Origin: a virus
Taxonomy: Duplodnaviria; Caudoviricetes
Strand: one strand, 5' to 3'
Length of the DNA stretch: 64,000 bases
IMG/VR virus record: IMGVR_UViG_3300046522_000316
Location: 224,001 to 288,000 of that record
Positions 2,388 to 63,210 of the stretch are shown here, in pieces (position 1 is the first letter of the stretch; each line of letters starts with the position of its first letter). Made by a program: the position numbers and the translations under genes. Under the pieces are notes generated by a model that did no database searches, was not told where the DNA came from, and saw only the letters and a list, made by a program, of their open reading frames with translations.

Positions 2388-3388
2388 TCCGCGTCTTCTT
2401 TTGCGCGAACTTTTTCACGCAATTCTGCACGCTCTTTCTTTTCGTAAGCGGCGCCGATTTCTTCCAGCTGGCGTGCAACCCACTTGCGCCCATTCTTCTC
2501 GCGCTTGACCAGATAGTTCACAGCGTCTTTATGCTTGAACTTTTTCCGGGCCTTTTCGTACAACTGCGTAAGCCGGTCGGTTGGGTTATACAGATACTGC
2601 ATATCGCCCACGCGATCATACAGGAAATACGGGCGCCCTTTGCTCTTTGGCATATCAACAACAAAACCATCGACGTGACGTTTCAGGCGTTCGAACGTGC
2701 CTTCCAAATCCCAATCGGCTTCGAGGTCGATATAAATCTTTCCATCCTGTGCTTCAGCAAATGCCTTCAGCCACAATTCAGAATTCGTTGCTTGGATAGG
2801 CCAGTTGCGATTTGCCTTTGCGCGAATTTCCATCGGTACGTGCATCGGCTGGTTGTACCAACTGCCCAAAGGAATTCCACCGTTCAACATTGTGTTGAGC
2901 GAACTAAGCCCGGTCAGGATTGGAACGTTGGATTTACGGTGGCCTTTGTACTGCGGAATACTATCTGCGAAACGCTTCGCCATTTCCGCAAGACTTTCAT
3001 GCTGGTGTTCCTTTGGTTCCCACGCCTCGAAATGGCCACCGGGGCTAACGCTAACCACTTCGTCCAACATGCCCGGATAATTCATGTACCCGTGCATCCC
3101 CATTTTTTCACCGGCTTCCCACATGCGCCGCATCACTTCGGTTTTTCCGCCGCCCTTTGGAAGGTTGGCGCCGATTGTGCCACCGCTGCAACTCCAGCGC
3201 TTACTGGTGATGCTGCTCAACTGCCAAGGCCACAGGCGCGGCTTTGCGGCGAACGTGAATTGACGCGGGCCGTGTACAACCATGTCGCGCATTTCACGCC
3301 ACGCAATAGCGGTTTGTTTATCGCTCTTCGGATCTTTGCCCAGCAGGCCGACGTAATCCGTTGGTGCGTGTTCAGGCCGATTGTTCAT
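2357..3388 (-). CDS. hypothetical protein with P-loop/RecA-like fragments
   Basis: LPKGGGKT and ILTGLSSLNTMLNGGIPLG segments; no complete ATPase motif set. Confidence 0.65.
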   Translation of the reverse strand: MNNRPEHAPTDYVGLLGKDPKSDKQTAIAWREMRDMVVHGPRQFTFAAKPRLWPWQLSSITSKRWSCSGGTIGANLPKGGGKTEVMRRMWEAGEKMGMHGYMNYPGMLDEVVSVSPGGHFEAWEPKEHQHESLAEMAKRFADSIPQYKGHRKSNVPILTGLSSLNTMLNGGIPLGSWYNQPMHVPMEIRAKANRNWPIQATNSELWLKAFAEAQDGKIYIDLEADWDLEGTFERLKRHVDGFVVDMPKSKGRPYFLYDRVGDMQYLYNPTDRLTQLYEKARKKFKHKDAVNYLVKREKNGRKWVARQLEEIGAAYEKKERAELREKVRAKEDAEWKAKYGDFM

Positions 3389-3719
3389 CGTTCTTCCTTC
3401 GCTTGATTTCCAGCACAGCAGCCGAAACTAATTTCGCCCTGCTTTTCGGTTTTAAATGGCGGTACTCTTCGTTCAAACTTTTAACGATTTGATCCGCCGA
3501 CATTCCTTTGGCTAGCCGCACCAACATGAGGTCTACGGCTACGTCGATTTCTGTACGCATTTTCAGGCCCGCAATTGACGCAGGCGGTTCACACCACGGC
3601 GGAAAGTATCGGTGTAGAACTCGACACGGTAAGGACGTTCCATAACCGTGAAGGCGTCGTAGAAGTCGATAGCCGGGCCGTCTTCGTCGCACTGCATCGG
3701 CAACGAAATGTACGGGCAC
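3372..3719 (-). CDS. hypothetical protein (true start probably MRTEID near 3560)
   Basis: C-terminal half fills the gap between neighbours. Confidence 0.5.
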   Translation of the reverse strand: MPVHFVADAVRRRRPGYRLLRRLHGYGTSLPCRVLHRYFPPWCEPPASIAGLKMRTEIDVAVDLMLVRLAKGMSADQIVKSLNEEYRHLKPKSRAKLVSAAVLEIKRRKNDEQSA

Positions 3720-4018
3720 TGGTCGAGGCGCTGACCGATCTTGGCAGCAACGGCTTTTTCGATTTCACGAATTGCGATTTCGACCATTTCTTCCATCGAA
3801 TCGCTTTTGTGTTTACCACCGTCAAACCAGAAGGTGTACACGCCGTTGCTGGTATCGAAAGACAGATAGCCTTCAGCTTGTGGCGGGAACGTAGCGGCGA
3901 ACAAGGTAGGCACAACCTCAATAAAGAATTGGCCGGGGAATTTCAACAAGGATTGTGTAGGAATCATTTGGCTCTCACTTTTCGTTGTATTCGCGTGTAC
4001 GTTTTTTGATGTGTTCAC
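3563..4018 (-). CDS. hypothetical protein
   Basis: Co-directional ORF, no motif recognised. Confidence 0.6.
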   Translation of the reverse strand: MNTSKNVHANTTKSESQMIPTQSLLKFPGQFFIEVVPTLFAATFPPQAEGYLSFDTSNGVYTFWFDGGKHKSDSMEEMVEIAIREIEKAVAAKIGQRLDQCPYISLPMQCDEDGPAIDFYDAFTVMERPYRVEFYTDTFRRGVNRLRQLRA

Positions 4019-44328: not shown

Positions 44329-44901
44329 TTATTGCTCCCGTTGGGCGATGCGCTGTTGCACGTAGTTGATAAGTTCGTTCGTGGTTTGCCACGTCATGTC
44401 TTCGTCAGGAATTTCGATGCTGAAATGATCCTCGACACACAACGTCAGATCGAACATTGCAATTTCGTCAGCTTCCATTTCGCTGAATGGAGTGCGGACG
44501 TTGATGTGTTCTGCGCGATAACCAAAACTACCGGCCACCATTTCGAGAATCGTGGCTTTCAATTCTGGTGCCATTTCACTCGGCATAATTTCCTCTACTT
44601 CGTCAAAGGGCACGGTATCAGGCAGCGGGTAATTCTTGGCTGCGTCGTCAAGCGCAGCGCGCAACGTAGGCTTTGGTTCAGTTCGTTCAAACCGCCACAT
44701 TAAATTGAATTCTTTGGCCGGTGTACGCTGGAACATATTCGGGTTGATCGACAGGCCGCTATTCGACAGGGCCGTGCGACGTTCCAGATAATCGAGGCGA
44801 TCAGTATCCCCGAAAAGTTCGCGCAATTTTGCAGCGAGTTTGTAATCGGATGCGCACACCAATTCGTATGCGCGTTGGCGTTCCTGTTTGGTCAGGCTCA
44901 T
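44329..44901 (-). CDS. phage domain fused to a C-terminal ACP-like domain lacking the Ppant Ser
   Basis: aa 110-186 ...EADEIAMFDLTLCVEDHFSIEIPDEDM..TTNELINYV aligns to AcpP [36 protein letters not shown]; Ser replaced by Glu. Confidence 0.8.
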   Translation of the reverse strand: MSLTKQERQRAYELVCASDYKLAAKLRELFGDTDRLDYLERRTALSNSGLSINPNMFQRTPAKEFNLMWRFERTEPKPTLRAALDDAAKNYPLPDTVPFDEVEEIMPSEMAPELKATILEMVAGSFGYRAEHINVRTPFSEMEADEIAMFDLTLCVEDHFSIEIPDEDMTWQTTNELINYVQQRIAQREQ

Positions 44902-60219: not shown

Positions 60220-60435
60220 TTAAAAACGAGTGCCTACCAGTTTTGCAATAAGCGCTGGCGGGCTAATGGTTACGGTCAGCTTGCAGTAACCGCAATCGAC
60301 TTTCCACGTCGGCGGCATTGTGTGCTGCTCGCGAAAATCGCTTTCGTCACCTTGGCACGTCGCCCCGCATTTGGGGCAGGTGAAAATTAATGGCGGTGCA
60401 GATAAAACTTTCATTGCTACCTCACTTGTCCCCAA
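60220..60435 (-). CDS. Zn-ribbon protein
   Basis: CPKC...CGYC. Confidence 0.7.
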   Translation of the reverse strand: MGTSEVAMKVLSAPPLIFTCPKCGATCQGDESDFREQHTMPPTWKVDCGYCKLTVTISPPALIAKLVGTRF

Positions 60436-60584
60436 CGGTTACGAACCCTGTCGTGCCGTTTCGGTTCGCGTTTCAGTTTTTCAATTTGTTCCTGCTTGCG
60501 TTGTTCCCGCAAGTATTCTGCAAATTGACGGTCGGCCCAGTCGCGCTGTTGCTGGCGCATGTTGTCGTGCCAGAACATAATTAA
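60390..60584 (-). CDS. possible small protein
   Basis: Region needs a gene; the frame is uncertain. Confidence 0.3.
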
Positions 60585-61816
60585 ATCCCCGATGTGATAA
60601 TTGCAAAGTCACTCGGATTCAAATCGGTGTGCTGTGCAAATTTAACCAGTTCGGTAAAACCGAATCGGCCCGCCAGTTCGTCGATGATTTCGATCCGGCG
60701 TTTCATGCCCGACAATTCGTGAACTGCGGAAGCGTCGAAGTCGCACTTGCCTTCGTTTACGATGTGGTTAAAAAGGGCAACCAGACCGGGCGTAGAAACA
60801 TCCGCCAACAAATCCACGATTTCGTCTTCGTCTTCCGCGTCGATAGTTTCGCCGTCGATTTCCTCTTCCTCTTCTTCGAGGTCGTCAGGGTCACGGAACG
60901 AAGAACAGACGTTGTAGCAACTGCGGCGGCACGGGTGAACCGATTCAATCATTTCGCGAAACACACGCAGCACGTCAGATTGCGCATGCGCCACGACGTT
61001 TTCACTTTCGTATAAATCGAAAACCCGATCCGTGATTTTCAATTCGAACGCTCGCTGCAAACTGAACAATTGCTGCGTCGTGTCTTTGCCGTTGTACAGG
61101 TGCTGCATATAGCGCAGCGATTGTTTCACGCAGGCCACATAACGCACGATTACAGATACCAGCCATTCGTCTAGGCTCTTCGGCATTGCAGCGCCAGACA
61201 AACGCGCCATATCGCACAGGGCCAGAATGTGCGACTCGGAACCGACGTTGTGATCAATCACCAGCATTTCACCAACGTACAAACGGAAGCCGTTAAAGCC
61301 TTCGCTGATTTCCACCACAGCACGGGCGAACGTGGTCGCGTTGGGCACGTTGCACAGGTGAATTGCACCGTCGCTGTGAATCTGCATCACGAAACCGGCA
61401 GTGGCTTTTGTAGGCGCCAATTTCTTTTCGAGGTCGCCCATGATCAGCGACAGATTGTGCGGACGGCTGTTTTGGAATTTGACAGGCTCGCCAATTTCCT
61501 TTGCCATTTTCACCACGACCTTTTTCGGCTGCGCTACACGCGGCGCAGAATCCATCGGTTCGTGATTGGCGATATACGTTTCAATATCACGAACCGTTCT
61601 CCAACCACTCGATACGCCGCCCGGAATTTCGATTTCGAATTCCTCTTCAAGATCCATGAGGATTTCGCCAAGATCCATTCCGTTGATTTTCAGGGAATGT
61701 CTGATCGTGTCTTCCGAATCAATCGGGTGCCCGATTTTCATGCCCATGTGATCAGTAATGACGCGGCGAATGCGGTTCATTTGATCAGCGGAAACTTTCT
61801 TGCTCGGCTTAGCCAT
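60581..61816 (-). CDS. protein with an N-terminal ACP-like domain lacking the Ppant Ser
   Basis: RIRRVITDHMG...LKINGMDLGEILMDLEEEFEIEIP..WRTVRDIETYIANH aligns to AcpP; DSL replaced by NGM; start moved to MAKPSK. Confidence 0.8.
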   Translation of the reverse strand: MAKPSKKVSADQMNRIRRVITDHMGMKIGHPIDSEDTIRHSLKINGMDLGEILMDLEEEFEIEIPGGVSSGWRTVRDIETYIANHEPMDSAPRVAQPKKVVVKMAKEIGEPVKFQNSRPHNLSLIMGDLEKKLAPTKATAGFVMQIHSDGAIHLCNVPNATTFARAVVEISEGFNGFRLYVGEMLVIDHNVGSESHILALCDMARLSGAAMPKSLDEWLVSVIVRYVACVKQSLRYMQHLYNGKDTTQQLFSLQRAFELKITDRVFDLYESENVVAHAQSDVLRVFREMIESVHPCRRSCYNVCSSFRDPDDLEEEEEEIDGETIDAEDEDEIVDLLADVSTPGLVALFNHIVNEGKCDFDASAVHELSGMKRRIEIIDELAGRFGFTELVKFAQHTDLNPSDFAIITSGI

Positions 61817-61897
61817 GGTGCGAATTCCTTGATAAAGGTCAGTTTGATTTACTACTGACAAAACCCACACATGGCGGGCTTGTCTTTGTGGTGGGGA

Positions 61898-62179
61898 TTA
61901 GCGGGAATGCAGCGTGTCGAGGTCGTCGTCGGAATCGTGAAAATCTTCGTCGTCTTCCTCTTCCTCTTCCTGCTCTTCGTCCTGTTCATCGTCGTCAGGA
62001 TTATCAGGCACCATATTTTCGTACTGCGCTTCACGTTCCGCGTTGATCCGATCTTTATCGGCTTGCGGTAGTGCGTCCCATGCTGCTTTTTCCTGCGCGA
62101 TTTCTACACGGGCTTTTTCGACCAGCCGCGTTTCCTCTTCGAGGAACAAATCGCCCAGCGTTACACGTTTGTCGCTCAT
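61898..62179 (-). CDS. hypothetical protein with acidic tail
   Basis: D/E-rich C-terminus; SD GAGGA. Confidence 0.75.
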   Translation of the reverse strand: MSDKRVTLGDLFLEEETRLVEKARVEIAQEKAAWDALPQADKDRINAEREAQYENMVPDNPDDDEQDEEQEEEEEDDEDFHDSDDDLDTLHSR

Positions 62180-62237: not shown

Positions 62238-62795
62238 TTAATCCTCTCGGAAATTACCGCGCACATCGCACGGCATGTACAGGGTGCGTTTCTCGCCTTT
62301 GTCGTCCGTCACCTTTTTAGCGCGGAGAACTTTGTACGGGTCGAGGCCGTACACGAAATTGTCAACGCGGCAGTGAATACGCGCCCATGCAGAACCCGGC
62401 GAATATTCTTCCCACGCCACAATTGCATCACGCAGCGATGCAAAGTCGTCGCTGTATTTGCAACTTTCCTCGCCGTCGCTTTCGTACTTGCCGGTAACGA
62501 CGCCGTAAGGAAAAGCAGCGTCTGCAAATTGCGCCAGCGTTTCGGCAGGCAACGCATTGTGACGGCTCGCCAAGTCGATCAACTTTTTGAGGTATTCGGT
62601 TTCCGTTACCAAACCATCCTGCAATTGCGTGTGCAGTTGGTTTGCTTCGGCGCCAGTGGCGATATTGAATTGCAGAACGGCCAACAGGTTCAGGTTGAAC
62701 ATTTTAACTTCCTCTATTGCGTGAGTGTGTGAATCGTGGGCGCAACTTGCCCGACTGGATTTCATTGTACCTATGCACCGACGAACGGTCAACAA
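62238..62795 (-). CDS. hypothetical protein (start probably MFNLNL near 62702)
   Basis: Co-directional ORF. Confidence 0.7.
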   Translation of the reverse strand: MLTVRRCIGTMKSSRASCAHDSHTHAIEEVKMFNLNLLAVLQFNIATGAEANQLHTQLQDGLVTETEYLKKLIDLASRHNALPAETLAQFADAAFPYGVVTGKYESDGEESCKYSDDFASLRDAIVAWEEYSPGSAWARIHCRVDNFVYGLDPYKVLRAKKVTDDKGEKRTLYMPCDVRGNFRED

Positions 62796-62808
62796 ACGAA
62801 AACAGCCC

Positions 62809-63210
62809 CTACAGGGGCCGCTTGCACTCGCTACAGCATCGTTTGAGCTTCAGGCCGTTACGACCTTGTGCCCATTGCAGAAACAGCCCTTCACGTTCGC
62901 CAAGGCCCGTTAGCACGTTGCCTATGTCGTGGGTTGCACTGGCGGCAATGGAAAGCGCTTTCGCTTCGCTGGCAGTCACCGGGTCAGGGCGCAACACCAT
63001 GTCGGTTTTCGAACGGGCCTTTGCATCGTCGCGCAATCGTTCCATTGTCGCGGCTGCTGATTTGTACCCGTAACGTTTCAGGTCAGCAATGCAGCGCGCC
63101 AACTGGTAAGCCGAAACTTCGTGAATCACGGCGTAATCGTGATTCGTCGAGAAATAATATTTCACGGTTTCATTCCTTCGGGATTTTGAAAGCCAGATGG
63201 TCACTGCCAA
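62809..63210 (-). CDS. hypothetical protein
   Basis: Ends CCSEC. Confidence 0.6.
   Translation of the reverse strand: MAVTIWLSKSRRNETVKYYFSTNHDYAVIHEVSAYQLARCIADLKRYGYKSAAATMERLRDDAKARSKTDMVLRPDPVTASEAKALSIAASATHDIGNVLTGLGEREGLFLQWAQGRNGLKLKRCCSECKRPL

Follow-up and report, generated by a model that had tools for sequence, protein, structure and literature searches.

The window, a stretch of 64,000 nucleotides that forms part of a 314,289-bp contig, carries about 109 plausible open reading frames (ORFs). Every one of them lies on the minus strand, and the coding density is 92%. Its PHROG matches include virion structural proteins, and the nearest phage in GenBank is Pseudomonas phage HRDY3 (313.7 kb), to which it is weakly similar. 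The source is a jumbo phage. Nine Pfam families are represented in the window, including NUDIX, RlaP, NADAR, KORA, a KH domain, a 2OG-Fe(II) oxygenase and GNAT.

The gene considered here encodes a protein of 411 amino acids followed by a stop codon (Table 1). Its start codon is the ATG at 61816, and the same MxKxxK start is found in all full-length homologues. An earlier note, made from the letters alone, had placed an acyl carrier protein (ACP)-like domain at the N-terminus of a protein of about 410 residues. That placement was accurate: the stretch it quoted corresponds to residues ~42–85, and the complete domain spans residues 9–86. The remainder consists of a flexible linker and a C-domain (residues 113–411), in which an α/β core with a layer of helices is followed by an acidic linker and then by a bundle of helices. 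The core is marked by the motifs KLxPTKA, EGFNGFRLY and HNxGSESHI.

Directly upstream of this gene lies an ORF (61898..62179, minus strand) for a very acidic protein of 93 amino acids that includes a run of about 20 Asp/Glu residues. Its product is the orthologue of HRDY3 XDJ15347, and the synteny with XDJ15346 and XDJ15348 is conserved. The second gene downstream (60220..60435, minus strand) encodes a zinc-ribbon-like protein of 71 amino acids with a CPKC...CGYC motif. At 62764..62823 (minus strand), two genes upstream of the 411-aa gene, a σ70-like promoter (TTGACC, a 17-nt spacer and TACAAT) that may represent the start of an operon comes after a terminator-like hairpin (62823..62800); in a promoter and terminator scan, such sites were no commoner than in shuffled sequence.

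Table 1. Position of the serine-less ACP gene, its modules and the second ACP gene in the window.
Feature	Coordinates	Strand	Basis
Whole gene, 411 aa	60581..61816	-	ORF and common start of homologues
Shine-Dalgarno-like AAGGAA, 8 nt before the ATG of the 411-aa gene	61825..61830	-	Read from sequence
ACP-fold domain (predicted), residues 9–86, net charge -8	61559..61792	-	Homology and AF2 model
Gly46 codon, at the phosphopantetheine Ser position (E. coli Ser36)	61679..61681	-	HMMER alignment, column table
Helix II and the EIEIP after it, residues 46–65	61622..61681	-	Alignment
Flexible Lys-rich linker, residues 87–112, pLDDT <50, pI 9.6	61481..61558	-	AF2, composition
Family-defining α/β core and helical layer, residues 113–293, pLDDT 85–95	60938..61480	-	AF2, alignment
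Acidic low-complexity linker, residues 294–329, net charge -11, disordered	60830..60937	-	AF2, composition
C-terminal helical bundle, residues 330–411	60584..60829	-	AF2, alignment
Second Ser-less ACP gene, 190 aa, ACP domain at the C-terminus, Ser->Glu	44329..44901	-	PF00550, alignment

Comparison of the protein with the PDB by phmmer aligned residues 9–85 to residues 5–80 of the 81-residue Bacillus subtilis ACP; matches in this search included 1F80 (E = 6.7e-7) and 2X2B (E = 1.3e-6), with Gly46 opposite the phosphopantetheine serine. A profile built from 21 family members matched 2EHS (E = 3.6e-15) and E. coli AcpP (7PDI, E = 3e-13), and these ACP matches involve only the N-terminal region. 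PHROG 5934 (“acyl carrier protein”) matches the window protein at 2e-6, the Pfam family PF00550 scores 18.5 bits on it, which is 2.3 below the gathering cut-off of 20.8, and one relative (P0006) carries a precomputed PF00550 match. The identity of the domain to bacterial AcpP is about 28–30%.

The structural prediction agrees with these matches. An AF2 model built on 21 sequences (an earlier run with 15 sequences gave a poor ACP domain) has helices at residues 10–24, 46–60, 68–71 and 75–85 with a pLDDT of 80–90, and E. coli AcpP superposes on it with an rmsd of 1.4 Å. Foldseek searches with the model returned ACPs (e.g., 4etw_B and 1f80_F) with target-normalised TM values of 0.85–0.90 and an rmsd of 1.4–1.8 Å. 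The best match in VIA-align was Rv0033 (Z = 13.6, rmsd 1.0 Å over 74 residues), and 50 out of 50 among the matches listed were carrier-protein chains or domains, with Z between 9 and 13.6. Sequence and model together confirm residues 9–86 as a full-length homologue of type II ACPs with a predicted four-helix carrier fold. The ACP likeness claimed in the earlier note is thereby upheld by phmmer, by the family profile and by superposition, and the structural neighbours of the model are indeed ACPs. One element departs from the canonical structure, since in the window clade a Gly-rich loop that contains an invariant Trp takes the place of the acidic helix III of ACP. An HMM scan across the 64-kb window revealed no ACP-like domains beyond the two already known, and a word-indexed search of 5.8 billion proteins, of limited sensitivity, returned no close stand-alone relative of this one.

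Phosphopantetheinyl transferases (PPTases) modify a serine at the N-terminus of helix II. The D-S-L serine expected there in a holo-ACP is missing from the window protein, as the earlier note had observed. The clade to which the protein belongs comprises, in addition, ten full-length metagenome homologues (58–87% identity) and a locus from a JGI soil metagenome (L005, 86% identity), and none of the 12 members seen has Ser at the cofactor position, where Gly, Thr or Asp is found instead. In the 11 aligned proteins, including that of the window, Gly is the commonest residue in the column (eight proteins), followed by Asp (two) and Thr (P0004 alone), and L005 also has Thr. With the attachment site for 4'-phosphopantetheine gone, the domain cannot, judging by its sequence, carry acyl groups at this position, so acyl shuttling there would be impossible. 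Gly, Asp and Thr alike are common at helix N-caps and well suited to them, a pattern consistent with selection that acts on the fold rather than on the cofactor.

The genomic surroundings likewise lack the enzymes associated with a holo-ACP. No PPTase or ACP-client enzyme (KS, AT or adenylating) was found among the 109 ORFs of the 64-kb window of this ~314-kb phage, and the complete genome of HRDY3 contains no AcpS, ketosynthase, malonyl transacylase or adenylating enzyme (PF01648, PF00109, PF00501 and PF00698 were searched). That the domain might still be a carrier, through modification of another residue (Ser41, Ser34 or the Thr46 of some relatives) or through a non-canonical prosthetic group, is hardly credible. 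Ser34 and Ser41 are nearby and Thr46 does occur in P0004 and L005; however, Ser41 is Phe in 3 of the 11 proteins, Ser34 is not invariant, position 46 is Gly or Asp in 10 of the 11, PPTases are established to act on the N-terminal Ser of helix II, and HRDY3 has no PPTase at all.

Conservation within the clade is unevenly distributed along the protein. Mean pairwise identity over the 11 aligned proteins is 68% in the ACP domain, 74% in helix II and 75% in the core, compared to 58% in the C-terminal bundle and 47% in the acidic linker. The dN/dS ratio against L005, which represents one sequence pair, is 0.38 for the ACP domain, 0.10 for the core, 0.43 for the bundle and 0.48 for the acidic linker. 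Between residues 46 and 65, the clade shows no variation at E51, I52, M54, E57–E59, F60, E61, E63 and P65, and the helix II stretch from E51 through LEEEFEIEIP is nearly invariant. The counterparts of E. coli D38, E41, E47, E48 and E49 are acidic: D48 is present in 10 of the 11 aligned proteins, and E51, E57, E58 and E59 are invariant. In E. coli ACP, E41 and E47/E48 form ion pairs with AcpS (bioRxiv 10.1101/2025.01.28.635281), and the counterparts of these residues are all invariant in the clade.

The 68% conservation and the dN/dS of 0.38 indicate that the ACP domain is not decaying. The sequence comparison supports the view that it is kept by purifying selection, above all in the acidic helix II, which would exclude decay; the earlier note had likewise argued for selection, and clade conservation, the near-invariant helix and the one-pair dN/dS bear it out. 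The idea that the domain is a relic, its carrier function lost and the remainder drifting towards a deletion like that in HRDY3, is accordingly given little credence. It could appeal to the absence of the domain from the sister lineage, to a dN/dS above that of the core and to the P0026–28 branch, which has diverged beyond Pfam detection. However, frameshifts and stops are absent, the conservation of the domain stands within a clade that is only 58–87% identical overall, the nearly invariant helix II stretch is 15 residues long, dN/dS is well below 1, and the Ser-less state occurs in two clades set apart by well-supported branches.

The wider family is defined by the C-domain rather than by the ACP domain. 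Only 13 proteins emerged when the family profile was run against 1.8 billion representatives, a JGI metagenome scan found the single locus L005, and a search of IMG/VR found no relative. With so few members, which reside on contigs of 245–320 kb, the C-domain defines a rare jumbo-phage family. Three architectures occur in it. In the first, the C-domain stands alone (HRDY3 XDJ15348, in conserved synteny, P0015 and P0020–24); P0012 and P0013 look like further ACP-less forms but come from 1.2-kb contigs and are probably truncated, and they were not counted. In the second, represented by P0025, an ACP with an intact GGDSLD (PF00550, 55.8 bits) precedes the C-domain. The third, a Ser-less ACP followed by the C-domain, is found in the window clade and in P0026–28. 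The N-terminus of the latter is too diverged for Pfam and aligns by hhalign to the ACP of P0025 (E = 1.5e-5) with GDG opposite GDS; helix II is not acidic in this branch.

In a tree of the C-domain calculated with IQ-TREE, the HRDY3 orthologue and P0015, both without an ACP domain, are sister to the window clade, and ACP-less members fall between the two Ser-less clades on well-supported branches. The distribution of architectures requires at least two changes on this tree, in which P0025 sits on a long branch and its placement is uncertain. P0025 and the window clade are homologous in the linker and at the beginning of the C-domain (EPV..N.RPH), as would be expected if the two parts were joined once, long ago. 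The fusion thus appears to be old, and two distinct clades have either lost the serine or lack it. The simplest history would be one in which a holo-ACP fusion was ancestral, the serine was lost in at least two branches and the whole domain was lost elsewhere. Since P0025 keeps GDSLD, it was probably a genuine carrier that was first fused to the C-domain, rather than a mimic made for the purpose.

The second Ser-less ACP in the window, also reported by the earlier note, is real (PF00550, 33.7 bits), and the two genes differ, as described there, in the position of the ACP, the fusion partner and the substitution. The orthologue of the second gene in HRDY3, XDJ15383, keeps DSL. In this family, the serine is kept in HRDY3 and six metagenomic relatives and is replaced by Glu in the window protein, P0030 and P0036 and by Asn in P0038; the serine state is therefore polymorphic within one orthologous gene, and the residue has been replaced several times. 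P0009, a homologue of the 411-residue protein with Gly, and P0037, a member of the second family with Ser, both lie on 55,505-bp contigs, which are probably one and the same. This combination indicates that the serine losses in the two genes would be independent, as the earlier note had proposed, with the loss in the 411-residue protein being the older and that in the second gene the younger.

Some other ACPs of the lineage retain the serine. HRDY3 has two adjacent ACP genes (2917..3886 in locus L004, corresponding to HRDY3 300916..301885), both keeping DSL, that encode a 236-aa protein whose ACP is at the C-terminus and a stand-alone ACP of 90 aa. The stand-alone protein (XDJ15384) is 35% identical to the domain in the window and has in common with it a W-[RK] motif after the EIP turn. 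In XbC2 (L006, 2830..3237) and fHe-Yen9-03 (L007, 2839..3255), an N-terminal extension of ~55 residues precedes a Ser-bearing ACP, which constitutes another form of phage ACP fusion.

The C-domain itself has few points of reference. It has no match in Pfam or PHROG, none by sequence in the PDB with the family profile and none in the PDB by Foldseek; BFVD gave only weak, poorly superposed Foldseek rows outside the ACP domain, and the ESM Atlas gave no usable match. VIA-align suggested frataxin/PsiB/Rv3902c-like sandwiches for residues 114–237 and death-domain-like bundles for residues 327–411, but with Z ≤ 6.8 in both cases, within the stated noise of the tool, these candidates were set aside. 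The C-domain, modelled only inside the whole protein, thus matches no known fold or family in its predicted form, and no new fold is claimed for it. Across 21 family rows, G176, D335, L337, T342, R374 and I378 are invariant, and most of these (D335, L337, T342, R374 and I378) sit in the C-terminal bundle, while none of the polar residues of the α/β core is invariant. Taken with the lack of database matches, this speaks against an enzyme dependent on a tethered substrate. An enzymatic role was rejected on these grounds, and the 300-residue module is probably non-enzymatic.

We infer from the sequences and by analogy that the protein is a cofactor-less descendant of a real ACP, tethered to a jumbo-phage-specific module, that acts as a protein-docking handle through helix II, and we assign this reading a probability of roughly 0.6. 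The N-terminal 86 residues would descend from a genuine ACP that lost its cofactor site, with selection maintaining the acidic “recognition” helix II as well as the fold, and the disordered Lys-rich linker of ~25 residues would tie them to the core, acidic linker and bundle. Helix II would bind a basic ACP-recognition surface on a partner protein, and the docked domain would bring or hold the C-terminal module there. Since HRDY3, the nearest complete relative, has neither ACP-client enzymes nor a PPTase, the partner would most likely be either an ACP client of the host or a protein of the phage that has escaped recognition. [quoted passage not shown] On the other hand, the domain is dispensable in the family, as the HRDY3 orthologue and P0015 show, it evolves faster than the core (0.38 versus 0.10, one pair), the canonical ACP interface is partly gone with the conversion of helix III to a Gly-rich loop, and the P0026–28 branch has a non-acidic helix II.

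The identity of the partner divides the remaining possibilities. It is possible, if not the favoured explanation, that the ACP domain is an internal module of the phage that has no host target and binds its own C-domain or linker in an autoregulatory manner, or else another phage protein, for example within a system built around Ser-bearing ACP paralogues of the phage. The lineage has several such paralogues, some with the serine (XDJ15383, XDJ15384 and most relatives of the second gene), a basic linker adjoins the acidic ACP domain, the GDSLD of P0025 suggests that ACP and C-domain were originally coupled in function, and the shared EPV..N.RPH segment fits one old fusion. However, the C-domain is itself acidic overall (net charge -2 in the core, -11 in the linker and -9 in the bundle), AF2 predicts no confident docking between the two parts (pTM = 0.44 for the 411-aa protein, with a disordered linker), and the ACP-less orthologues function without the domain.

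It is rather unlikely that the domain serves as a decoy of the host ACP or as an effector, being a permanent apo-ACP that competes with AcpP for client enzymes or targets the C-domain to them. Candidate clients would be acyltransferases, FAS and lipid A enzymes, and a redirection of host lipid metabolism during infection is plausible by analogy. The contact residues of helix II are invariant, phage-encoded ACP clients were not detected in HRDY3 or the window, and the σ70-like promoter two genes upstream could be cited in favour, although such sites do not exceed their shuffled frequency. Moreover, apo-ACP stops the growth of E. coli, where it inhibits glycerol-3-phosphate acyltransferase more than holo-ACP does (PMC3896788). 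However, SpoT is reported not to bind apo-ACP (PMC3896788), so the candidates cannot include all ACP clients. The low identity to AcpP, the loss of the acidic residues of helix III, the optional nature of the domain and the non-acidic helix II of P0026–28 also speak against a decoy, and P0025 keeps the serine, so mimicry would not be the ancestral role.

More doubtful is an extension of the docking-handle reading, in which cofactor-less ACPs would direct the phage proteins to host enzymes that recognise helix II of AcpP, deliver the 300-residue module and block or rewire the synthesis of host lipids or envelope. If this were true, phage ACP-decoy effectors would make up a wider class not yet described, and the protein would represent its fused version. 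ACP is among the most connected of bacterial proteins, several of its client enzymes are antibiotic targets and, to our knowledge, all of them read the same acidic helix. An unloadable domain that keeps this helix would lend itself naturally to probing or inhibiting the enzymes that ACP serves, and the Ser-bearing, Ser-less and ACP-less versions provide a natural comparison for non-carrier roles of the ACP fold. A practical consequence is that the label “acyl carrier protein” on phage genes in databases can be functionally wrong.

Among known systems, the bacterial ACPs of type II FAS (AcpP/AcpA; PF00550; 1F80, 2X2B, 4ETW, 1L0H) have in common with the window domain the four-helix fold, homology over the full length, the acidic helix II with LEEEF.xEIP, the size and the acidic pI. 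Unlike AcpP, the window domain has Gly in place of Ser and the Gly-rich loop with its invariant Trp in place of an acidic helix III, and it is phage-encoded, fused to a 300-residue partner and devoid of FAS context. The closest phage relatives in GenBank (PHROG 5934; HRDY3 XDJ15384, XbC2_157, fHe-Yen9-03 g156 and Motura gp339) are 30–36% identical to it; unlike the window domain, the GenBank jumbo-phage ACPs keep DSLD in five of the five examined, stand alone or carry no more than a short extension at the N-terminus, and are never fused to a C-domain of the window type.

The mACP of Plasmodium and other apicomplexans (PMC8547962) is likewise an ACP homologue that lacks the phosphopantetheine serine, is kept and works by protein binding, which shows that an ACP fold without the cofactor can have a selected function. 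However, it is eukaryotic, organellar and stand-alone, its partner is Isd11–Nfs1, and the lineages are unrelated. E. coli apo-ACP (PMC3896788), cofactor-free with an intact recognition helix that binds and inhibits a client, is the model for the decoy, but there the inhibition results from artificial overproduction of the host's own protein, and the phage domain may be likened to it by analogy. Full-text literature searches returned no description of serine-less phage ACP domains, so that within the literature searched the earlier note's term “undescribed” holds. What is distinctive about the present system is its fusion architecture and the occurrence, in one family, of Ser-bearing, Ser-less and ACP-less forms.
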